Positions 788 to 10,221 of a stretch of 10,525 nucleotides of DNA are shown here, piece by piece. The stretch is from a virus: UHGV virus genome UHGV-1717814, one strand, 5' to 3'. The translations under genes and the position numbers were made by a program. How positions within the stretch are numbered: the first letter of the stretch is position 1; each line of letters begins with the position of its first letter. Under the pieces are notes generated by a model. The model ran no database searches, had not been told where the DNA came from, and saw only the letters and a program-made list of their open reading frames with translations.

Positions 788-2263
788 TTAAGCATAGGGA
801 TAGTAATCTGTAATGGCCTTGCCTTGCTGGTTCTGCTGACCGGGAATTCGCAGACGCTTCGACACCGGGAAAGCAAACGTCAGCAGTAGCGCATCGCCTT
901 TACCCGGCGAACGCCCAAGCCGCTCCTTGATATCTTCCTTCGGTTCGATAACGATTTTACCGTCCACGCGAACTTTGTACTCTGCCGCCGACAGGTCGTC
1001 CGCTGTTTCCTGGTCATCCAGCATGCCGCCCAGCCTCAGCCATGTCTTGCATGCATTGAACATCTCCCCACGCTTGTTAAGCATCTGCGGGTCAGTGGAC
1101 GCACCGCCGAACGGAACAAGTTGCCATGTACGTCCCCAGCCATCACCGATTGACTTCAAACCGGTTCCGTAACCGAAGTCGATGAACACCGCGTCAGCCT
1201 GGTACTGGTCTTCAAAGTCAGCGATACGCTTCGCCATAATCAGATCGTCGGTGGTCTTGTTGCCAGTCCATAGCACCTTACTATGCAACCCCTGCCGCAG
1301 GTATATCACCGCGTCATCAACGCCTGAATATGCCGGGTCAACACCGATTATCACCGGTGCATGTGCCACCTGCGCAGCAGTTACCACCCGTTTCATTGCC
1401 TCGTCAGTAAGACCGGTAGGGATAAACTGCAATTCAGATGCATTAGGGAATATGCCGCGTACACGGATTTTAACGAAGTCGCTGTCTTCCCCGTAGTCAT
1501 CAACCCATTTCTGCAATTGCTGCTTGTTAGTACCTTCCACCGTCCGGCTGTCAATCTGCGCAGTTTTCCAGCGGTGTTTATATTTGCGGAAACATTCACG
1601 GAATCGCCCGGTATTACGCGTCGGGTTTCCGAACGCCACCCAGATAATCTCAGTGTCTTCGTCCGTTAGCGCACCTTCGGCAACTTCCCACACCAGATCC
1701 GCAATGTTCGACGCTTCATCGAATACCACGATAATACGTTTGCGCTCGTTGTGTAGTCCGGCGAATGCCTCAGTGTTGTGCTCAGACCAGGGAATTGCGT
1801 CAGCTCGCCACCGCTTGTCGTGCCCAGGATCATTGCTGTACATCGCGGTAGCGGTACAGGTAAACCAGTCTTTCGTGATAGCAAGGTTGGACCACTTGAT
1901 AATTTCCGGCCAGGTCTTCGTTCGTAGCTGGTTGTCGGTGTTGGCGGTCACCACGACCTTACAATCCTCGCAAGTGGACATGCCCCAGTTGATCAGCATT
2001 GAGATGAATGCGGATTTACCAATACCGTGACCAGAAGCACGTGCCAGCATAAGCGGCTGATAGCGCGTCTCTGGATTCTGCAGATGATCACGTATCTCTC
2101 GGAACGCATCGGCCTGCCACTGACGTGGACCGGTGGCATGTGCCAGTTCAGTACCCTCTTCCCCCCACGGGAACGCATAGAGGGCATAGCCAAGCGGATC
2201 GTGAGTGAACCCTGCAATATCCTCGATCAACTGCTCTTCAGGAGATAACGCTGTATCTGTCAC
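788..2263 (-). CDS. terL: Terminase large subunit (ATPase/nuclease), 491 aa
   Basis: Walker A-like SGHGIGKS near the N-terminus and acidic motifs (VVFDEAS, IIGVDPA) typical of terminase ATPase/nuclease domains. GTG start at 2261-2263 overlaps the terS stop (GTGA coupling). Confidence 0.85.
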   Translation of the reverse strand: MTDTALSPEEQLIEDIAGFTHDPLGYALYAFPWGEEGTELAHATGPRQWQADAFREIRDHLQNPETRYQPLMLARASGHGIGKSAFISMLINWGMSTCEDCKVVVTANTDNQLRTKTWPEIIKWSNLAITKDWFTCTATAMYSNDPGHDKRWRADAIPWSEHNTEAFAGLHNERKRIIVVFDEASNIADLVWEVAEGALTDEDTEIIWVAFGNPTRNTGRFRECFRKYKHRWKTAQIDSRTVEGTNKQQLQKWVDDYGEDSDFVKIRVRGIFPNASELQFIPTGLTDEAMKRVVTAAQVAHAPVIIGVDPAYSGVDDAVIYLRQGLHSKVLWTGNKTTDDLIMAKRIADFEDQYQADAVFIDFGYGTGLKSIGDGWGRTWQLVPFGGASTDPQMLNKRGEMFNACKTWLRLGGMLDDQETADDLSAAEYKVRVDGKIVIEPKEDIKERLGRSPGKGDALLLTFAFPVSKRLRIPGQQNQQGKAITDYYPYA

Positions 2264-2856
2264 TGATTACCATCCTGACGTTCTTTGAGTCGCTTCCTGG
2301 CTGCTGCTATGCGATCAGCAATTGTCACATTCACATTAACATCCAGACGTTCTTTGAACGCGTTGACATCAACATGCTTACCAATCAGTTCTAGGTTCTT
2401 CACCTTGTCAGGCCATTTAATTTTTTTGAGGATTGTCTCTATCGAATCCTCGTTCATGTTCATGATGGTCGATGACAGATCAAAGCCACTAAGCGTAGTG
2501 CGCCAGATTTTCGGCCACTCACGGATTGGTTTAAGGCTCCCATCGTCGTTGAGGATATCGATCACGTCCATCTGGTCGATCTCCACCAAGCGCATGAGAA
2601 CGTAATCAGCACTGACGCGCATTCGTTTGTTGCGCTCCTCCATCAACTCGGCAATCCGTTTTTGAATGCGTTCATCGCGCATCATGACACTGGCTTTAAC
2701 TGCCGCTGTATTTGGGGAGAATCCTGCGTTAATCGCTGCCTGAGTCTGGTTTTCAGGCGTTTTGATGTATGACTGGCAATAAGCCTCCTGCATTGCTGTG
2801 AGCGGCTTAAATTGCGTTGATTTGCGTTTATAGGTTTTAGGTTCAGCAGGCATCAT
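2260..2856 (-). CDS. terS: Terminase small subunit, about 198 aa
   Basis: LTAMQEAYCQSYI...AAINAGFSPNTAAVKAS...RIQKRIAELMEER matches the pattern I recall for phage terminase small subunits. The ORF-track start at 2934 is a TTG extension overlapping a terminator hairpin; I place the start at the tandem ATGs 2854-2856 / 2851-2853, preceded by GGTGG. Confidence 0.8.
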   Translation of the reverse strand: MMPAEPKTYKRKSTQFKPLTAMQEAYCQSYIKTPENQTQAAINAGFSPNTAAVKASVMMRDERIQKRIAELMEERNKRMRVSADYVLMRLVEIDQMDVIDILNDDGSLKPIREWPKIWRTTLSGFDLSSTIMNMNEDSIETILKKIKWPDKVKNLELIGKHVDVNAFKERLDVNVNVTIADRIAAARKRLKERQDGNQ

Positions 2857-2865
2857 AACCACCGT

Positions 2866-2895
2866 GGTAATAGTTACCGTTGTGGTAATAGTACC
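2866..2895. promoter_or_regulatory. Palindrome cluster directly upstream of terS: perfect TTACC-gttgt-GGTAA (2874-2888) flanked by extra GGTAA / TACC half-sites
   Basis: Read directly; same motif as at the immunity region. Lies between the terminator (2899-2925) and the terS start codon. Confidence 0.45.
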
Positions 2896-2898
2896 ATG

Positions 2899-2925
2899 CA
2901 AAATAAAGCCGCCATAGTTGGCGGC
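2899..2925 (-). terminator. Rho-independent terminator upstream of terS (minus-strand sense)
   Basis: GCCGCCA (2908-2914) pairs with TGGCGGC (2919-2925), loop TAGT. On the minus strand the hairpin is followed by TTTATTT (complement of 2901-2907). Confidence 0.55.
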
Positions 2926-2965
2926 AGTATTCAAAACCCGTCAAATTCATCATGCATAATCTACT

Positions 2966-2979
2966 CGTGACATGTCACA
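2966..2979. repeat. 14-mer CGTGACATGTCACA, copy 2
   Basis: Identical to 701-714. Overlaps the stop codon of the 2975-3322 ORF and lies about 40 nt upstream (in transcription sense) of the terS-proximal terminator. Confidence 0.8.
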
Positions 2980-3322
2980 CTATTAATTTCGTTTCATGCC
3001 AGCCTTTAGTCACCCAGCATTGCGAGTCACCATTACACGGGCATGAATTAACTGGAACTCTCTCGCCGCACTTACCGCAACGTTTTCTGCTGATCGATTT
3101 TATACGCCCGCGCACACGTGCATCATCCTGGCGGATCAGCAGCGCGATGTACTCGGCCATTTCATAGGGATCGCGACCAGGGCGCCGGGCGGCGCAGTTC
3201 CGCGCCAGCATTTCCTGCTCCTGCTTATCCAGCACCAGTTCAATTTTGCGCTCACCGGCGGCGGACTGCCGAGCGCGCTGCGCGGCTTTGCGTTCTGCGG
3301 GGGATTTAGCCACGAATCGCAC
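2975..3322 (-). CDS. Hypothetical basic protein (about 112-115 aa) with C-terminal Cys cluster CGKCG...CPCNGDSQC; possible DNA-binding regulator
   Basis: Long ORF on the operon strand. Start is uncertain: GTG at 3320-3322 or GTG at 3311-3313, which has GGAG 8 nt upstream. Function is inferred only from composition and position. Confidence 0.4.
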   Translation of the reverse strand: MRFVAKSPAERKAAQRARQSAAGERKIELVLDKQEQEMLARNCAARRPGRDPYEMAEYIALLIRQDDARVRGRIKSISRKRCGKCGERVPVNSCPCNGDSQCWVTKGWHETKLIV

Positions 3323-3428
3323 TCCACGCCAGATTGATTAATGACTCCCAGGTAATATAAACCCGGATACCAGCAGCCAGGCCGAAACCAATCACCATGG
3401 CATAAAGCAGAGCGTTGCACTTGTTCAT
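3306..3428 (-). CDS. 40-aa hydrophobic peptide (MNKCNALLYAMVIGFGLAAGIRVYITWESLINLAWSAIRG), putative small membrane protein
   Basis: Below the ORF-track size cut-off. ATG overlaps the stop of the upstream gene (TGATG) and GGAGGTGA lies upstream. Overlaps the start region of the 2975-3322 ORF, so one of the two models is probably wrong. Confidence 0.35.
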   Translation of the reverse strand: MNKCNALLYAMVIGFGLAAGIRVYITWESLINLAWSAIRG

Positions 3429-4195
3429 CACTTCACCTCCTGCGGCGGTTCTGGTAGCGGCATCCAGTGGGTTACATTGCGGCTCTGCGTTTCGAAGAAC
3501 TCCTCACCATTGCGGACGACATCAAAAAATTCACCGTCTCGATATTGCGCATAAAGAACGAATGCGCTATCACATAAAATAATTACGTGCTGACCATCAT
3601 CAGGCATTCGCTCACTACAGCTTATCCAACCATCCGGAGTAACCGGATAGTTGCCATTCACAAGGTCAGCTCGAACATATAGCGTGTCATCATGGTGCTG
3701 ATTGTGGCTGCACCACGTTAATTCGCTTAACTCGCCATCTTCTGGCCATACTCCAGCCGTTTGCAGCCAGATATGGGCTGGCGCATCTTGGCAAGGTGTA
3801 TTAACTGGCAACTTGTAAGTTTGGCTTACAGGTTCGGCACCATGAAGCATGGCGGCGCGGCAGGCATTCCAGCCTGTAGCGTATGCAGCCGCTTTGCTGC
3901 TGCCTTCAACTGGCGCATCCTGCCAATACATTTCTTCCGGCACTACCTGCACCTGAGGGGTGGCGTAGAGTGGAATTCCTCCCCCTCCACCAGAAAATTC
4001 ATTGCGAGCGTTATACTCACGACCATCTGCGTCATCACGCATCCACGCCACCGGTTCTGCTTCCAGCGATGCCAGCGCGATACGAAACACATTGGCAAGC
4101 AGGCTGTCTGAAGATTGGTTATCGTGCGCCGGGTCGCTCAGGAAGCCTGTGATGAATGATTTAATCTCCGCACGTTCTTTGGTAATAGTGGTCAT
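3428..4195 (-). CDS. DUF551-like phage protein, 255 aa
   Basis: C-terminal segment WISCSERMPDDGQHVIIL...HWMPLPEPP resembles the DUF551 signature as I recall it; N-terminal part is joined by a GGGGG linker. AAGGAG 8 nt upstream of the ATG at 4193-4195. Confidence 0.7.
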   Translation of the reverse strand: MTTITKERAEIKSFITGFLSDPAHDNQSSDSLLANVFRIALASLEAEPVAWMRDDADGREYNARNEFSGGGGGIPLYATPQVQVVPEEMYWQDAPVEGSSKAAAYATGWNACRAAMLHGAEPVSQTYKLPVNTPCQDAPAHIWLQTAGVWPEDGELSELTWCSHNQHHDDTLYVRADLVNGNYPVTPDGWISCSERMPDDGQHVIILCDSAFVLYAQYRDGEFFDVVRNGEEFFETQSRNVTHWMPLPEPPQEVK

Positions 4196-4205
4196 GTGTT
4201 ACTCC

Positions 4206-4469
4206 TTAACCCGCAGTGCTTTCAACTGATGAGGGGAATAAAATCTTTTCATCAAATCCGGCATTCATATCATGGACAGCAACACACCAATCCATCGACG
4301 AACGATTATCAAGAGCCTCCATGATTTCATCCATGCGGCGCAGGTCATACAGGTAAATGCTTTTATCGCCAATGGTGTAAAAACCAATTTTTTTCGGTGA
4401 TGGGCAGCGATCAAGAACGTCCTGTAATTCGTTCAACCATGCCTGTTCTTTTTTTGTCAAAGTTGCCAT
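4206..4469 (-). CDS. Hypothetical protein, 87 aa (possibly extended to the GTG at 4544)
   Basis: ATG at 4467-4469 with TAAGGAAAA upstream; stop overlaps the DUF551-like gene's SD. The upstream extension encodes FAKSPARRK, similar to the N-terminus of the 2975-3322 ORF, so the longer form cannot be excluded. Confidence 0.55.
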   Translation of the reverse strand: MATLTKKEQAWLNELQDVLDRCPSPKKIGFYTIGDKSIYLYDLRRMDEIMEALDNRSSMDWCVAVHDMNAGFDEKILFPSSVESTAG

Positions 4470-4470
4470 A

Positions 4471-4662
4471 TCAGTTTTCCTTATTAATGCGACAGTGGTT
4501 TTTCCAGCGGTTTTGCGCCGCGCTGGGCTTTTTGCAAAAACCACAATCCATCATCCCGTAATATTTCATCAACCCCATCCGTCGGTTGCTGAGTCTCACC
4601 CACTGCCAGACGCCAGGAGCGTTTCTACGAACTAACAGAATCTTTGCTTTACGGTTTTTCAT
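4471..4662 (-). CDS. Micro-ORF, 63 aa, basic (MKNRKAK...)
   Basis: ATG at 4660-4662 overlaps the stop of the upstream micro-ORF (ATGA); its own stop is 1 nt from the next ATG. No family recognised. Confidence 0.3.
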   Translation of the reverse strand: MKNRKAKILLVRRNAPGVWQWVRLSNRRMGLMKYYGMMDCGFCKKPSAAQNRWKNHCRINKEN

Positions 4663-4835
4663 CTTACAGCGTACCCTTTCTTCCGCCTGTTCTGTGACGC
4701 AGTAGGCTTACGCTTTGCGGCAAAAGCCACCTGACCAAATGGATGGAGTACCGCTATCTTATGGTTGCTAATAACCAGCTCCACCACACGCACAGGTCGC
4801 TGTAAAAAAAGTCGTTTTGCCTTACGGTTTTTCAT
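4659..4835 (-). CDS. Micro-ORF, 58 aa, basic (MKNRKAKRLF...)
   Basis: ATGA coupling at both ends; shares a near-identical 23-nt start region with the 4471-4662 ORF. Confidence 0.25.
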   Translation of the reverse strand: MKNRKAKRLFLQRPVRVVELVISNHKIAVLHPFGQVAFAAKRKPTASQNRRKKGYAVR

Positions 4836-5008
4836 CGCTTTGCTCTCCTGCGTCTCTTTGCTGCTCGTCGTGCCGCTGCAATACCGGTATGGCGGCGCTT
4901 TGGTGCCGGGATGATGTTGTCAGCCATCAGGACATACGGCTTTGCAATTAGCGCAGAAGCCCAAAAACGAGTCGGGTACGGTAACAAGCCGATACATGCC
5001 ACACGCAT
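4832..5008 (-). CDS. Micro-ORF, 58 aa, very basic C-terminus (MRVACIGLL...RRAAKRRRRAKR)
   Basis: ATG overlaps the TAA of the Ea22-like gene (TAATG) with AGGAGG 6 nt upstream; stop overlaps the next ATG. Confidence 0.35.
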   Translation of the reverse strand: MRVACIGLLPYPTRFWASALIAKPYVLMADNIIPAPKRRHTGIAAARRAAKRRRRAKR

Positions 5009-5769
5009 TACTCACCTCCTTTGATGCGAATGCCTGCAGCGCGGATTGCAGCGATGACTTCAGAAACTTTGTATGCCATTACCGTTTGGTAATCATCGTG
5101 AAAATCTGTTCGATGAAGCATGCTGCTACGTTCCGGGAGCGATATTTCCCGAGCATCCAGTTCCTTAACGCGTTCCTCCAGTTCGTAGACCCTGCATTGT
5201 TCTCTATCATCAATCAGATATAACCCAAGACATTCGCTTTCTACCCAACCGCCAAAATCATGATCGTAACGCTCACATGAAAACTCACCGTCACCGTCCT
5301 TTGTTGGAATGGTGTAACTATCTAATGGGCCACCATATGTCGGCACATTTCCCAATGTTGGATGCTCAATCCACATGAAAAATGCACGTCCGGTTATTGG
5401 GCAAATATCTGGCCGCCATTGGTTACGAACAGCCTTGGTTTCGGATAATTCTTCAGCGTGTTGTTTTACTTCCTCAAGCTCAACTCTCAGCTTCCCTACC
5501 GTTAGCGCAATATCCTCGTTCTCCTGATCGCGGCGTTTTATGTATTGCTGGTTTCTTTCCCGTTCATCCAGAAGCGCCAAGACGGTAGCCGGATTGGCTG
5601 CGGCGATGAATTCAGCATCACGAGATTCGTTTTCACTGAACACCATAGCTATTTGCTCATGGTTTATGCCGTCAGTGGAGTAAATCTCATCGTCGAATTC
5701 AACAGCCCACTTACCTTTCGTAGCCTTCTCTGCCGCCTCACGCAGTGCCTGATAGTCAATCTTGCTCAC
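5008..5769 (-). CDS. Ead/Ea22-like protein, 253 aa
   Basis: N-terminus MSKIDYQALREAAEKATKGKW matches the recalled Ea22-like signature of lambdoid prophages. GTG start at 5767-5769 with AAGGAGG 6 nt upstream. Confidence 0.7.
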   Translation of the reverse strand: MSKIDYQALREAAEKATKGKWAVEFDDEIYSTDGINHEQIAMVFSENESRDAEFIAAANPATVLALLDERERNQQYIKRRDQENEDIALTVGKLRVELEEVKQHAEELSETKAVRNQWRPDICPITGRAFFMWIEHPTLGNVPTYGGPLDSYTIPTKDGDGEFSCERYDHDFGGWVESECLGLYLIDDREQCRVYELEERVKELDAREISLPERSSMLHRTDFHDDYQTVMAYKVSEVIAAIRAAGIRIKGGE

Positions 5770-6070
5770 TGGCAGCCTCCTTTGCCGGGATTTCTAACTT
5801 TTGAGTGGTTGTATCAAATTCAAACAACTTAACCACGTCATCAAACAGGACATAATCACCATCAGGATCTTCAGTCATATCTGCGCCACAATCCTGACCG
5901 CACGAGTCGCAACCATCCATATCAAGCTCGTATCGCTTCAGGTTTGCGATATTTGATAAATTCAGCGCCAGTACAGCCAGGTCATAAACCTCTTCGGCAG
6001 TGACATCGCTGTTCAGTCCCATTTCATGGCGATATATGATTTTTTCTACACGTTGTTTTGTGATCGTCAT
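5756..6070 (-). CDS. Hypothetical strongly acidic protein, 104 aa (24 D/E against 9 K/R by my count; Cys cluster DGCDSCGQDCGAD)
   Basis: ATG at 6068-6070 overlaps the upstream stop (ATGA). Composition counted by hand. Confidence 0.6.
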   Translation of the reverse strand: MTITKQRVEKIIYRHEMGLNSDVTAEEVYDLAVLALNLSNIANLKRYELDMDGCDSCGQDCGADMTEDPDGDYVLFDDVVKLFEFDTTTQKLEIPAKEAASEQD

Positions 6071-6630
6071 TTTTGCTCACCTTCCTGTTCTTCCAGAAAA
6101 ATACGCATAGCCTCAAGCATCTCTTCGGTGTCATACGGAGACAGCTTGTCACGCAGGATGTGTTCAATGCTGTTAATGAACTTGCGGATTGCTTTGCGTT
6201 CAATTTCAGCCAGGAAAGCGTCGGTGGCTGGGGTGTCTGATTGCAGAGACTTTGCGCGATAGTCATTCCACCCTCTTGCATACATGGGATTAACTTGCAC
6301 TCCATCTTTTACGCAATATGCCTGCCCTCCACGGTTGATAACCTTGATTTCGTCCATAGCGCCAGACTTCAGCCCCGCATTCTCCGCCGCCAGTGCCGAA
6401 AACTTCTCGTGTGCCAACTTAACAGCCGAATCAGCCTGCTTAATTGACTCAATCGCTTTCTGCTGGTCTTCGGCCAGCGCATTAGCACGCACCAGTTGCA
6501 CTTCCAGTTGCGTTGCCAAATCGCTGATCAGCTTTGCCACACTGCGCATATCAACGGCACCACATTCTGCTTTCAGTTCCGAAGCCATCTCATGCCCGGC
6601 GGCAACTAACCCTTTGATATTACTTTCCAT
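6067..6630 (-). CDS. Hypothetical protein with alanine-rich, probably coiled-coil N-terminal half, 187 aa
   Basis: ATG at 6628-6630 with GAGGGTAAAG upstream; no family recognised. Confidence 0.6.
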   Translation of the reverse strand: MESNIKGLVAAGHEMASELKAECGAVDMRSVAKLISDLATQLEVQLVRANALAEDQQKAIESIKQADSAVKLAHEKFSALAAENAGLKSGAMDEIKVINRGGQAYCVKDGVQVNPMYARGWNDYRAKSLQSDTPATDAFLAEIERKAIRKFINSIEHILRDKLSPYDTEEMLEAMRIFLEEQEGEQK

Positions 6631-6691
6631 CTTTACCCTCGCTTATCCACATAACTTATTGATTACATTGATAACTAAAAAGATCGTCGAT

Positions 6692-7036
6692 TCAGAAATC
6701 TTCGATGTTCCAGCCACCACCTGCTTTCTTTGGTTTAACCGTTACCCCGATGATTCGGAACGGATACTGATCTGCGGCGACTTTGGTTTTCACCCTGGCG
6801 TCGTCGGTCCAGAAACCTTTCACTTCGTGCAGTTCCATCTCGCCGGTGGCGAGCATCACAGCGAAATCTGGCGTATAGAACGTGTTATTAGCTAACCGCA
6901 GCTTGATACCCTCGAATCGATACCAGGCGATTTCCCCTGCACGTTTACGCTGCTCAAGGTGCTGGCAATACGCAGATTCTGTTTTGTTCATCTGGCCTGT
7001 TTTGAGTCGACCAAGAGCCTGCATCTGTTTTCTCAT
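6692..7036 (-). CDS. Small PD-(D/E)xK-like nuclease-fold protein, 114 aa (DUF1064-like)
   Basis: Segment YTPDFAVMLATGEMELHEVKG contains a PD...(E)xK arrangement. ATG at 7034-7036 with GAGGT 5 nt upstream. Family assignment from memory. Confidence 0.6.
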   Translation of the reverse strand: MRKQMQALGRLKTGQMNKTESAYCQHLEQRKRAGEIAWYRFEGIKLRLANNTFYTPDFAVMLATGEMELHEVKGFWTDDARVKTKVAADQYPFRIIGVTVKPKKAGGGWNIEDF

Positions 7037-7039
7037 GAT

Positions 7040-7116
7040 TTACCTCTGAGGTAATTAAAAACCACATAAGACACGAAATCAATAGGGTTTAGAATATTTT
7101 ATTACCTGATGGGTAA
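7040..7116 (-). promoter_or_regulatory. Operator-flanked promoter driving the accessory operon (minus strand)
   Basis: Perfect TTACC-N5-GGTAA at 7040-7054 and 7102-7116. Between them, on the minus strand: -35 TTGATT (7077-7082), 17-nt spacer, -10 TTTAAT (7054-7059). Same geometry as the PL-like region, including a 19-nt gap between the upstream operator and the -35. Confidence 0.5.
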
Positions 7117-7153
7117 TTATTTGAGCGTAAAAAAATGCGCTATCGCGCTGGTA

Positions 7154-7939
7154 TTACTTGATAAATCCTGCCGCCTTTCCCCGCCTGTATTCCTCCATCA
7201 GCCACTGCGCCGGTGTTATTCCCCCAAGGGTGGCGGCGTTAGGCATGCACCCGAAACTTCGCCCAGGTGGATGGTAAACGTCTCTCCCTGTGTCCGGAGG
7301 TGTACTCATGGGCTCTGGCTTTGCCTGTATGCTGATCACCGGATCGGGTATCTGCTGTCCGGAAGCCACCTTTTTCGCCCAATCATCGAGCAGCCTGCGC
7401 GCGTGTTTCTCAACCTCAATCTCGCTAAGCTGGCGCTGATACATTGCACGGCGGGTATCACATACGACCCAGTACATAACCGGATGTCGCCACGGGAATC
7501 TTTCGGGACCACCAGGATATAAACTTTTTTCCTTGCTGTACCGGTGAAACTCCGCCATCACATCGTCAATGGTGACGCCAAGAACCATCTTGCTGTCTTT
7601 ACACCACTTGATGAATTGCCCTGGCGACGGCCAGAACGGAGACTCACTGGCGCGGGCGTGGCGCATACCAGCAGAAACCTGTTCACGGGTTCGGATCCCC
7701 CCTTCGGCAAACGCAGCAATCCACTGCTGTTTTGCAGCAACTTCCTGCTCTGGCGTCTTCAGGTTGGTTACCACTGCCGCCGGAAACAGTTGTTTCAGCT
7801 GCTTGAAAAGGGCATCAACAAGCCTCTCTGCTGACATGTTCACTACGTTGTCATTGTTGGTGTACTGATGCTCATAACCTGACATGCGAGAAAGGGCTTC
7901 TCCGTCACGGTTTTGTATCGCGGTAAAAACGTTGTTCAC
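7154..7939 (-). CDS. Replication protein P-like (DnaB helicase loader), about 261 aa
   Basis: Segment LFKQLKQLFPAA...QQWIAAFAEGGIRTREQVSAGMRHARASESPFWPSPGQFIKWCKD aligns by eye with lambda P as I recall it (...RRQWVLAFRENGITTMEQVNAGMRVARRQNRPFLPSPGQFVAWCRE). ORF track begins at the GTG at 7954; I prefer the GTG at 7937-7939, which overlaps the O-like stop (GTGA) with GGAGGA 5 nt upstream. Confidence 0.85.
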   Translation of the reverse strand: MNNVFTAIQNRDGEALSRMSGYEHQYTNNDNVVNMSAERLVDALFKQLKQLFPAAVVTNLKTPEQEVAAKQQWIAAFAEGGIRTREQVSAGMRHARASESPFWPSPGQFIKWCKDSKMVLGVTIDDVMAEFHRYSKEKSLYPGGPERFPWRHPVMYWVVCDTRRAMYQRQLSEIEVEKHARRLLDDWAKKVASGQQIPDPVISIQAKPEPMSTPPDTGRDVYHPPGRSFGCMPNAATLGGITPAQWLMEEYRRGKAAGFIK

Positions 7940-8751
7940 AAGAAATCCTCCCACGCTTCAGGGCTGTTCCAGTGCGGAACGTTGTTATCAGGTAATGTTG
8001 ATTGCTTCTGTCTGCTAATCTGCAGCCGCCTTGCCAGCTTCTGCTCCCACTGTGCCTGATGGTATGCCTTACCCTCAGCCATCCAGTAAATTCTGAACTC
8101 TGCAAGTTCCTGTGCCGTTGGCAGACTGTCCAGGTAGATCCCCTGCAATGAGCTTTTCCGAAGAAAGTCATCTGATGGCTGCCATTGTTCATGCATGACA
8201 AATTTGCCTAATTGCCCTGGCCCACCAGGAGGAACAAAGTTATTCATCACGGCGTTGTTTGCGCCTGGGTCATGATGCACAGAATCCCCGTTTTTTGTCC
8301 TGCTCTCCCTCTCTTGGTTAAATGACTGGTTATATGACTGGTTCTGGATCCCGTTTTTGGGATCATTCAACATCCCGTTTTTGGGATCATTCAACATCCC
8401 GTTTTTGGGTATATTCCCGTTTTCGGTAACATTACCGTTTTCGGGTTCATTGCCCCCCTCTCGGTTGCCTTTAATGTTCCCGTTTTTGGTTATATTAAGA
8501 GAGAAAACCCGCACTCTTTTTGTCGCTCCCTTTCTCTCCCCGGTATCTGAAATAAGCCCCATTTTCATGAGCGATATAAGTCCGGCCTGCACGGTTTTTT
8601 TATTCAGGCAAGTGTCTTTAACGAGGCGTTCTATGCTGGGGTAGCAGAGGTTATATTCATCGGCTCTGTCAGCCATCGAGAGCAGTATGAGCTTTAATGA
8701 CGAGCTACCTGGATCTGTCTCCCAGGCCCAATCTGTTGCATGTCTGCTCAT
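7936..8751 (-). CDS. Replication initiator, O-like, 271 aa, with an internal low-complexity N/G/K-rich region encoded by the origin iterons
   Basis: Sits immediately upstream of, and coupled to, the P-like gene. Contains the iteron array at 8284-8497. ATG at 8749-8751 with GGAG 9 nt upstream. Confidence 0.75.
   Translation of the reverse strand: MSRHATDWAWETDPGSSSLKLILLSMADRADEYNLCYPSIERLVKDTCLNKKTVQAGLISLMKMGLISDTGERKGATKRVRVFSLNITKNGNIKGNREGGNEPENGNVTENGNIPKNGMLNDPKNGMLNDPKNGIQNQSYNQSFNQERESRTKNGDSVHHDPGANNAVMNNFVPPGGPGQLGKFVMHEQWQPSDDFLRKSSLQGIYLDSLPTAQELAEFRIYWMAEGKAYHQAQWEQKLARRLQISRQKQSTLPDNNVPHWNSPEAWEDFL
8284..8497. repeat. Iteron array, putative replication origin inside the O-like gene
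   Basis: Two perfect 24-bp direct repeats ATCCCGTTTTTGGGATCATTCAAC (8348-8371, 8372-8395) plus at least four degenerate copies sharing CCCGTTTT(T)GG (around 8284, 8396, 8417, 8435, 8478). Confidence 0.7.
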
Positions 8752-8766
8752 GATTAATCTCCGCTA

Positions 8767-8967
8767 TCAGCTTGAATGTTGTGGGGAGGAATTAATCATG
8801 ATCTGCTTAATCTCTGCCCTGATACGACGGTTTGATTCCATGGTGCACTCAACACAGTGTCCGTTGTAAACCCAGCGTTCACTGTCATGTCCGTGCTTAC
8901 ATGTTTTTCCGGTGTAGTAGCGTTTAAGTCCGCGCTTTGCGGCATCAATACGTGTAATGATTTCCAT
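8767..8967 (-). CDS. Small zinc-ribbon-like protein, 66 aa, in the position lambda uses for cII
   Basis: Internal ATG at 8965-8967 (MEIITRIDAAKRGLKRYYTGKTCKHGHDSERWVYNGHCVECT...); C-x-H-G-H...C-x2-C spacing. The longer track ORF from 9036 has a hydrophobic, unlikely extension. The ribosome-binding site is weak. Confidence 0.45.
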   Translation of the reverse strand: MEIITRIDAAKRGLKRYYTGKTCKHGHDSERWVYNGHCVECTMESNRRIRAEIKQIMINSSPQHSS

Positions 8968-9047
8968 GGTAAGCCCTGTTATTAGTATTGGGATTACGGT
9001 TATTTTGTGCTGACACAAAAAAAAGATCAACCACATTTGGTTTTTTA

Positions 9048-9062
9048 TTACCTTTGAGGTAC
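9048..9062. promoter_or_regulatory. Near-perfect operator-like palindrome TTACC-tttga-GGTAC
   Basis: One mismatch in the right half-site; lies just downstream of the cro-proximal terminator. Confidence 0.3.
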
Positions 9063-9073
9063 GAATAGATATG

Positions 9074-9095
9074 AAAAGACCGCCGGATGGCGGTC
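9074..9095 (-). terminator. tR1-like rho-independent terminator just after the Cro-like gene
   Basis: GACCGCC (9078-9084), loop ggat, GGCGGTC (9089-9095); on the minus strand it is followed by TTTT (complement of 9074-9077). Confidence 0.5.
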
Positions 9096-9117
9096 TACAG
9101 AGGGTTGTGGCTGGATA

Positions 9118-9348
9118 TCATGAGTAGAAGAAGTATGCCAGTTCTGCTTTTGAGCACAGCCATTGTCTTGATTTACAGGCTTTAAAAAGCCCATCCATCA
9201 ATACCTTACCTGGCATTTTGCGCTTACCTGTTAAGTGAGTCTGGATATAGTGACTCGTCGTTCCGGCTTCCTGTGCGAAGGCTTCACGCTCATCCGGAGT
9301 AAGTGCAAGCCAGTGCTTTTTGAAATCGAAATGTCCGTTATCGCTCAT
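9118..9348 (-). CDS. Cro-like HTH regulator, 76 aa (YdaS-like)
   Basis: Divergent from the repressor gene across an operator-rich gap. Segment FAQEAGTTSHYIQTHLTGKRKMP resembles the YdaS/Cro-type HTH as I recall it. Confidence 0.65.
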   Translation of the reverse strand: MSDNGHFDFKKHWLALTPDEREAFAQEAGTTSHYIQTHLTGKRKMPGKVLMDGLFKACKSRQWLCSKAELAYFFYS

Positions 9349-9384
9349 AGCTATTGCCTGATATTTATTTCAGATAATAAATAT

Positions 9385-9447
9385 TCACCTATAAGGTAAC
9401 AAAAATCAAGGATAGTTACCCATGAGGTGCATTTACCTGTTGGGTAA
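9385..9447. promoter_or_regulatory. Tripartite OR-like operator region with divergent promoters
   Basis: TCACC-tataa-GGTAA (9385-9399), TTACC-catga-GGTGC (9416-9430), perfect TTACC-tgttg-GGTAA (9433-9447). Candidate minus-strand promoter for the Cro-like gene: TTGATT, 17 nt, GAATAT, overlapping the first two sites. Confidence 0.6.
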
Positions 9448-9502
9448 TATTGCTTTAAATTGAATCATCTTCTGATTCAGATATGAGGCGATTTTCCAGA
9501 AA

Positions 9503-10087
9503 ATGAAAAGTATCCAGGACGTCCGCAGGCAAAATCTCAACGACTTGATCGACCGTGAATTCAATGGTGTTCAGACGCGGATGGCTGAAAAACTTGGAAC
9601 TCAGGCAAATCTGGTAAACCGCTGGGCTCTTGGCAAGAAGGTTATCGGCGACCAGGTTGCGCGAAAAATTGAAGCTGCCGCCAATAAACCCCGTAACTGG
9701 CTTGATATCGATCGCTCGCTTTCTCAGGAAGGTTTTCAGCCTGTCGGCCCGAGTGATATAGGTCAGCTGGCTGCTCACAACCTGGAACGCTGGATGAGCG
9801 AAAGCCGCGACCTTTCAACGCAGGGAAAACTACACCGCGCATCCGGCGTCGCCCAGGTGACAATCAGCCGCCTGTTAAACAATGAGGTCAGCGTTTCCAT
9901 TTCCACCCTGGAGAATGTTGCATCCGCATTCGGGCGTCATGGCTATGAATTACTGATTCACCCGCACGACCCTGCGACTATCAACTATGACCGCTCGCGC
10001 TACGCATTGTTACCCGAAACCGAGAAAGCAAAGATCGAAAGTTACATTGAATTTGTCATCAACCAGAACGAAAAAAACAAACAATAA
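9503..10087 (+). CDS. Immunity repressor candidate, 194 aa, with two XRE-type HTH segments and no recognisable S24 autocleavage domain
   Basis: HTH-like segments QTRMAEKLGTQANLVNRWALGKK and GKLHRASGVAQVTISRLLNNEVSVSISTLENVASAF. Divergent from the Cro-like gene and followed by a terminator. Absence of the peptidase domain judged by eye and by the short length. Confidence 0.7.
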   Translation: MKSIQDVRRQNLNDLIDREFNGVQTRMAEKLGTQANLVNRWALGKKVIGDQVARKIEAAANKPRNWLDIDRSLSQEGFQPVGPSDIGQLAAHNLERWMSESRDLSTQGKLHRASGVAQVTISRLLNNEVSVSISTLENVASAFGRHGYELLIHPHDPATINYDRSRYALLPETEKAKIESYIEFVINQNEKNKQ

Positions 10088-10107
10088 AACCATATTTTTC
10101 AGTAAGT

Positions 10108-10133
10108 AAGCCGCCTTATGGCGGCTTTTTTAT
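10108..10133 (+). terminator. Rho-independent terminator after the repressor gene
   Basis: AAGCCGCC (10108-10115), loop TTAT, GGCGGCTT (10120-10127), then T-run to 10133. Confidence 0.6.
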
Positions 10134-10144
10134 TGCCTATTCGA

Positions 10145-10221
10145 TTACCTAACGGGTAATTTTTTTAACTCATATCTATTGACATCAAACCATATACGCA
10201 TAATTATTACCTCAACGGTAA
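10145..10221 (+). promoter_or_regulatory. PL-like promoter flanked by two operators
   Basis: Perfect TTACC-taacg-GGTAA (10145-10159) and TTACC-tcaac-GGTAA (10207-10221). Between them: -35 TTGACA (10179-10184), 17-nt spacer, -10 AATTAT (10202-10207). Confidence 0.55.

Follow-up and report, generated by a model that had tools for sequence, protein, structure and literature searches.

The 15-base-pair (bp) palindrome TTACC-N5-GGTAA recurs in a stretch of 10,525 nucleotides (nt) of the virus genome UHGV-1717814 (hereafter the window), which by its sequence is a segment of a Uetakevirus (phiV10/epsilon15-like) prophage of the podophage type, with 95-97% identity to the Uetakevirus genomes phiv142-3, PAS61, TL-2011b, ZX5 and phiV10. 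The closest described counterparts are the repressor systems of the phages SPC32H and epsilon15. SPC32H has a switch composed of the repressor Rep and the antirepressor Ant (Kim & Ryu 2013, Kim et al. 2016; PDB 5D50, 5D4Z), with the same operator motif and layout as the window; its Rep is inactivated by the antirepressor, the locus of which lies outside the window in the phage studied here. SPC32H Rep is described as a tetramer that recognises palindromic sites through DNA-binding domains paired across different dimers (PMC9638917), with a separate tetramerisation domain that also binds Ant (PMC9986798); one tetramer is enough for repression and is removed from the DNA by tetrameric Ant, without cleavage (PMC9638917, PMC9986798). 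Overexpression in phage ZX5 of a Rep identical to that of the window abolished free phage, blocked lytic growth and brought drops of more than 99.9% in the transcripts of the holin and endolysin genes (PMC9782041).

The RefSeq record of epsilon15 (NC_004775.2), which belongs to the same genus as the window phage, carries seven features labelled 'protein_bind: repressor' or lysogeny whose sequence is exactly this motif, among them those before terS, the head genes and the tail-fibre gene, at the leftward early promoter (PL) and after the replication genes. The identical motif, (A)TTACC-N5-GGTAA(T), is found at orthologous positions in the two phages, and epsilon15 differs from the window in having three sites at PL and a perfect middle operator (OR2) between the repressor gene and the Cro-like gene. 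A consensus like ATTACCWDWWNGGTAAT was reportedly given in the epsilon15 genome paper of Kropinski and colleagues in 2007. The phiV10-type records retrieved (phiV10 and phiv142-3) are without repressor-site annotation, and literature text searches for the motif string gave no match.

The window also resembles lambda, 434 and P22 in having divergent repressor and Cro-like genes, three palindromic operators over both of their promoters and a second operator cluster at the leftward early promoter. It differs from these switches in that its operators, instead of being confined to the left and right operator regions (OL and OR), also stand at the internal promoter, at the replication-gene promoter and before terS, and relatives have them at head, tail-fibre, lysis and integrase genes too; in that Pfam detects no RecA-stimulated autocleavage domain (Peptidase_S24) in its Rep; and in having operator pairs that flank a promoter at 62 bp instead of abutting. 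Dispersed operators, with one repressor and many scattered sites, are known for P1 C1 and for the 'stoperators' of mycobacteriophage L5 gp71, with RP4 KorA/KorB as a plasmid analogue, and they silence late and accessory operons directly. Sites of the P1 and L5 kind lack symmetry, and in L5 a large number stand, in one orientation, in transcribed regions, where they block elongation; by contrast, sites of the window type are symmetric, intergenic and at promoters. From the comparisons set out below, we infer that TTACC-N5-GGTAA is very probably the operator of the prophage master repressor Rep, placed at the promoters of most transcription units.

Recurrence of the palindrome in the window

As a reading of the sequence alone had reported (the sequence-only reading), six perfect copies begin at positions 2874, 7040, 7102, 9433, 10145 and 10207, against an expectation of 0.01; none of 200 shuffles gave six perfect matches. 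With up to one mismatch allowed, the window holds nine sites. Two of the three one-mismatch copies proposed earlier, at 9048-9062 and 9385-9399, are as described, whereas the third, 9416-9430 (TTACCcatgaGGTGC), has two mismatches to the motif; its orthologue is a perfect operator in epsilon15, SPC32H and Klebsiella phage BUCT711, which justifies counting it as a site. One further copy with a single mismatch, at 2856-2870 (TAACCaccgtGGTAA), had been overlooked. All ten credible sites lie within the non-coding 11% of the window (about 1.2 kb by the assembled gene map), whereas the four other two-mismatch matches (1396, 2016, 2159 and 9224) are intragenic and agree with a chance expectation of 2.9. 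The palindrome is symmetric on either strand, with A or T (W) as the central base, as for a two-fold-symmetric DNA site.

The sites do cluster in intergenic control regions, although these number five and not four: 9048-9062 stands apart, past the terminator of the Cro-like gene and ahead of a conserved replication-gene promoter of its own. Three sites between the Cro-like and repressor genes (9385, 9416 and 9433), two around the PL-like promoter (10145 and 10207) and two around an internal promoter (7040 and 7102) agree with the earlier description, which had placed a single site before terS where there are two (2874-2888 and 2856-2870). Promoters were called as sigma-70-type consensus matches together with conservation of the hexamers across genera, and their start sites are predicted. 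The elements of the five regions are as follows.

terS region
2908-2925, minus strand: rho-independent terminator, parting the early-right operon from the terS promoter
2896-2888, minus strand: predicted extended -10 of the terS promoter, TGgTACTAT
2874-2888: terS operator 1, perfect; starts on the last T of the extended -10, centred on the predicted +1 (2881)
2856-2870: terS operator 2, one mismatch; 18 bp downstream of operator 1, spanning the terS ribosome-binding region

Internal promoter region
7149-7129, minus strand: terminator, weak, annotated in the phiV10 record
7102-7116: distal operator, perfect; 62 bp from the proximal operator
7082-7054, minus strand: predicted internal promoter, -35 TTGATT (7082-7077), 17-nt spacer, -10 TTTAAT (7059-7054); serves the DUF1064 gene and the genes beyond
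7040-7054: proximal operator, perfect; centred on the predicted +1 (7047); the Shine-Dalgarno sequence GAGG overlaps the right half of the operator

Replication-gene region
9096-9077, minus strand: terminator of the Cro-like gene
9048-9062: single operator with one mismatch (GTACC on the minus strand), about 60 bp upstream of the start of the promoter
9030-9002, minus strand: predicted replication-gene promoter, the fourth conserved promoter, -35 TTGATC (9030-9025), -10 CAAAAT (9007-9002)

Switch region
9385-9399: OR1, one mismatch (TCACC...GGTAA); nearest the Cro-like gene, between -35 and -10 of the leftward promoter
9409-9374, minus strand: candidates for the leftward (Cro-like) promoter, TTGATT (9409-9404) with GAATAT (9386-9381), or TTGTTA (9402-9397) with TATTAT (9379-9374)
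9416-9430: OR2, the middle operator, degenerate in the window
9433-9447: OR3, perfect; overlaps the candidate -35 of the repressor-gene promoter
9432-9460, plus strand: candidate repressor-gene promoter, -35 TTTACC (9432-9437), -10 TTAAAT (9455-9460)

PL region
10108-10127: terminator upstream of the PL-like promoter
10145-10159: distal operator, perfect; centred at about -62 and followed by a T-tract
10179-10207, plus strand: PL-like promoter, predicted, -35 TTGACA (10179-10184), 17-nt spacer, -10 AATTAT (10202-10207); 10 of 12 consensus matches
10207-10221: proximal operator, perfect; centred on the predicted +1 (10214)

Most of the site clusters come after a rho-independent terminator, on a promoter with the same hexamers in different genera. 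At the PL, internal and terS promoters the -10 and an operator share one base, the last T of the former and the first of the latter, which centres that operator on the predicted +1. At PL, eight aligned loci agree without exception in the -35 (CTATTGAC) and in the -10/operator junction (ATTATTACC), as they do in the half-sites and T-tract of the distal operator. In the switch, the three operators, with spacings of 31 and 17 bp, lie across the candidate promoters of either direction. That one and the same operator also stands at an internal accessory operon and at the packaging genes, as the sequence-only reading proposed, is supported by orthologous sites on conserved -35 and -10 hexamers and by the epsilon15 annotation, in which the repressor feature at 12-27 is orthologous to terS operator 1; an operator serving several regions, packaging genes included, is correct, but it was already public for this congeneric phage.

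The phiV10 RefSeq record starts terS at an upstream TTG, equivalent to 2934 in the window, which would put the terminator at 2908-2925 and both terS operators into coding sequence. In epsilon15 and phiv142-3 the start is the ATG equivalent to window position 2853, and a protein of this shorter length suits the Terminase_2 domain. The over-extended phiV10 frame is probably an annotation error, and knowledge of the operators may help in annotating phiV10-like prophages.

Conservation of the operators in related phages

The scan of related genomes that had been suggested as a check covered six complete genomes: epsilon15, SPC32H, phiV10, phiv142-3, Enterobacter phage Tyrion and BUCT711. Each holds 8-11 perfect sites (expected at most 0.07) and 13-18 sites with up to one mismatch (expected about 1), and by the gene tables the perfect sites are all intergenic, in a tally that leaves out the over-extended phiV10 terS start and a doubtful open reading frame of Tyrion. 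The locations are shared: before terS, the head genes, the lysis genes and int, around the antirepressor and tail-fibre genes, and at PL, in the switch, past the terminator of the Cro-like gene and past the replication genes. At orthologous positions the half-sites never vary, and spacers and flanks do so even among close relatives. In 98% of sites the base at the centre is A or T, and position 0 is A in 66%, giving the extended consensus A-TTACC-NNWNN-GGTAA-T. In five of the six genomes the two operators of a pair stand 62 bp apart at PL as well as at the internal promoter; BUCT711 keeps 62 bp at the internal promoter and has 63 bp at PL. Three more distant loci, from a Serratia prophage and two metagenomic contigs, with Reps 54-59% identical to that of the window, keep the same half-sites; one perfect copy in a metagenomic locus is intragenic. 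The half-sites were found unchanged in Escherichia, Salmonella, Klebsiella, Enterobacter and Serratia phages and prophages, among which Rep identity goes down to 42%.

The doubtful Tyrion frame, gp39 ('hypothetical protein', 34059-34271), runs antisense over the PL terminator, operator and promoter, covers two perfect operators and is probably not a gene.

Some relatives depart from the window in layout. In the two metagenomic relatives the internal control region has operators 18 bp apart (at 1206 and 1224 in locus L090, and at 1642 and 1660 in locus L092), a terS-type layout that replaces the promoter-flanking 62-bp pair, so operator modules appear interchangeable between control regions.

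In five of the six genomes the integrase gene is closely preceded by a variant with one conserved mismatch, TTACC-N5-GGTAT (at 26882 in epsilon15, 28568 in Tyrion, and 26870, 26960 and 39129 in the three others); BUCT711 has a one-mismatch site in its integrase region with the mismatch in the opposite half-site. Similarly, phiV10, SPC32H and Tyrion have TCACC-N5-GGTAA ahead of the lysis cassette, a place that in epsilon15 is taken by a perfect copy. Both the integrase-side and the lysis-side variants look like deliberately weakened operators.

Rep as the probable operator-binding protein

The repressor had been named as one candidate for the binding protein, and this is sound: Rep (9503-10087) is homologous along its whole length to the characterised Rep of SPC32H, matching 5D50_A over residues 1-190 with an E value of 4e-42. 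It is about 42% identical to SPC32H Rep and 42-43% identical to that of epsilon15. Pfam places HTH_3 at residues 106-147 and a weak YdaS-like helix-turn-helix (HTH) at 21-61. The description of Rep as a 'dual-HTH' protein needs care, as the DNA-binding pairs come from different dimers of the tetramer. In Kim 2016, and with PDB entry 5D4Z (Rep 92-198), the N-terminal domain is reportedly the DNA-binding one, and the second HTH-like region reportedly belongs to the C-terminal oligomerisation part. The gene that adjoins the operators encodes a Rep homologue of this build, with HTH domain at the N-terminus and oligomerisation domain at the C-terminus. The presumed recognition helix in the N-terminal domain, NLVNRW, is invariant in five aligned phage Reps that are 43-78% identical to that of the window, and this invariance matches that of the half-site. 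Wider homologues, down to 52% identity, carry the conservative variants NLVSRW, NLINRW and NLISRW, and their loci still carry TTACC-N5-GGTAA. A scan of viral contigs added 80 loci, all with an identical Rep.

The Cro-like protein (9118-9348) might instead be the chief or only binder of the motif, as a lytic-phase repressor or activator, or another phage regulator might be, with Rep directed to a different target; we regard this as unlikely. The Cro-like protein matches phrog_35, 'transcriptional repressor', in PHROG (E value 7e-13), and it is better conserved than Rep (59-83% versus 43-78% identity among relatives), with a putative recognition helix, AGTTSHYIQxHLT, that is invariant across clades and would fit an invariant operator. 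A PDB sequence search with it gave no significant match, and its AlphaFold2 model (single sequence; predicted local distance difference test, pLDDT, 81) is a five-helix bundle of the lambda-repressor-like kind, with 434 repressor, 434 Cro and YdaS as best matches at E values of about 0.7; a weak resemblance of the predicted fold to 434 Cro or YdaS is only suggestive. Against an exclusive role of this protein, the switch region offers no other repeated palindrome for Rep (TTACC is the only recurrent 5-N5-5 palindrome in three diverged loci), the annotators of epsilon15 gave the sites to the repressor, and SPC32H Rep is described as a palindrome binder (PMC9638917). Moreover, operators centred on +1 at late, lysis and integrase promoters fit a silencer of the lysogenic state better than a lytic-phase factor. 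Because Cro and CI share operators in lambda-type switches, joint use is likely here too, and by this analogy Rep and the Cro-like protein probably both bind the operators.

A host factor recruited by the phage, either a nucleoid protein or a host transcription factor, is less likely still. A conserved host protein could explain why phages from five enterobacterial genera have one and the same half-site, but the invariant helices of Rep and of the Cro-like protein explain this equally well; the motif always accompanies the Rep/Cro-like gene pair, with the densest cluster between those two genes, and we know of no enterobacterial regulator with a TTACC-N5-GGTAA consensus. Both this reading and that of the Cro-like protein alone are less parsimonious than binding by Rep. 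A boxB/nut-like RNA hairpin (5-bp stem, 5-nt loop), through which an antiterminator would let polymerase pass the preceding terminators, has the geometry of boxB and the position of most clusters just downstream of a rho-independent terminator to commend it, but we reject it as highly improbable, given an invariant stem with a variable loop (the reverse of boxB) and no compensatory changes, weak hairpins (-3.0 to -3.5 kcal/mol), proximal sites that straddle the predicted +1 so that their own promoter would transcribe only half of each, a motif equal on both strands whose W centre fits a two-fold-symmetric DNA site, and no N-like protein identified.

Some observations weigh against the assignment of the sites to Rep, or against parts of it. 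The half-sites are unchanged in every relative found, over a range of Rep identity of 42-100%, so covariation between operator and binder cannot tie the sites to Rep rather than to the Cro-like protein. The promoter scan as a whole, taken alone, gave no enrichment over shuffles; the promoter calls rest on consensus and conservation, and the +1 positions are predictions. Finally, a 62-bp loop held by a single tetramer would be tight.

Proposed mode of repression and specificity

Most transcription units are insulated by a rho-independent terminator and restarted from a predicted sigma-70-type promoter of their own that carries an operator. On the operators centred on +1, Rep would occlude RNA polymerase at the PL, internal and terS promoters; the 62-bp pairs (about 5.9 helical turns) would find their simplest explanation in a single Rep tetramer that, with its two pairs of DNA-binding domains, holds both operators and clamps the promoter between them. 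In the switch, where the three operators overlap divergent promoters, Rep would block the Cro promoter and probably autoregulate its own. The replication-gene promoter retains only the upstream, weaker site. Rep in a lysogen would then directly silence early-left, Cro, replication, early-right-distal and packaging transcription, unit by unit and with no cascade. Induction is assumed to proceed through the antirepressor encoded outside the window, as in SPC32H, there being no autocleavage domain in Rep. A single repressor-operator pair would in this way directly gate most transcription units of a very common Escherichia coli prophage type, whose immunity region we found as prophage in 540 of 5,426 complete E. 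coli genomes. Although this opens no new mechanism, it may be useful for the engineering of phiV10-based reporter phages and for predicting cross-immunity among Uetakevirus prophages.

The half-sites are likely to be frozen because the 14-18 sites of a genome would need to change simultaneously. The 5-bp spacer, by contrast, is 63% AT in an E. coli/Enterobacter-type clade versus 89% AT in a Salmonella/Klebsiella-type clade (p=3.6e-8, uncorrected for phylogeny); the flanks do not differ between these two Rep clades, leaving the spacer as the only part of the operator that tracks clade. As a tentative and rather doubtful extension, immunity specificity could depend on indirect readout of spacer bases that are not contacted, or the family could be largely homoimmune, with the 62-bp pairs each clamped by a single Rep tetramer.

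Gene map and further features

The gene map was assembled from the list of open reading frames, annotated relatives and Pfam and PHROG matches. The genes that surround the control regions, with those of the minus strand given in the order in which they are read, from right to left, are these.

10241, plus strand: start of the early-left operon
9503-10087, plus strand: repressor gene, Rep, 194 amino acids
9118-9348, minus strand: Cro-like gene, 76 amino acids, first in the minus-strand order
8767-8967, minus strand: gene of 66 amino acids, after the Cro-like gene
next, minus strand: genes for a DnaT-like initiator and a lambda-P-like protein
after the lambda-P-like gene, minus strand: DUF1064 (ATG at 7036) and Eae/Ea22-type accessory genes
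2975-3313, minus strand: small regulator gene, last of the early-right genes, stop TGA at 2975-2977
2260-2853, minus strand: terS, ATG at 2853, with terL next

A second dispersed perfect palindrome, GTGACATGTCAC, lies at 702-713 and 2967-2978 of the window. It occurs 2-4 times per Uetakevirus genome (twice in Tyrion and three times in epsilon15, at 2142, 19517 and 39612), against a chance expectation of about 0.002. The copies stand at syntenic 3' ends of operons: one holds the TGA stop of the small regulator gene, another, in relatives, holds the stop codon of the last gene of the virion operon, and a third is free-standing between the convergent terL and gp66-like genes. A rho-independent terminator follows within about 5-45 nt of each copy, and the linear records of Tyrion and phiV10 were opened inside a copy. 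The palindrome may be bound by a protein that acts as a roadblock or in termination, may serve in packaging, or may be the target of the small regulator itself.

Upstream of the gp66-like gene, the plus strand carries a tRNA-Arg (anticodon TCT) at 46-122; a tRNA-Arg near the terminase genes is also present in phiv142-3 and SPC32H. The gene of the DnaT-like initiator holds iteron-like tandem repeats at 8315-8451: 12 bp in 2.4 copies (8315-8343), 24 bp in 2.6 copies with 100% identity (8348-8409) and 18 bp in 3.1 copies (8397-8451). These repeats are probably a replication origin inside the initiator gene, like that in lambda O.

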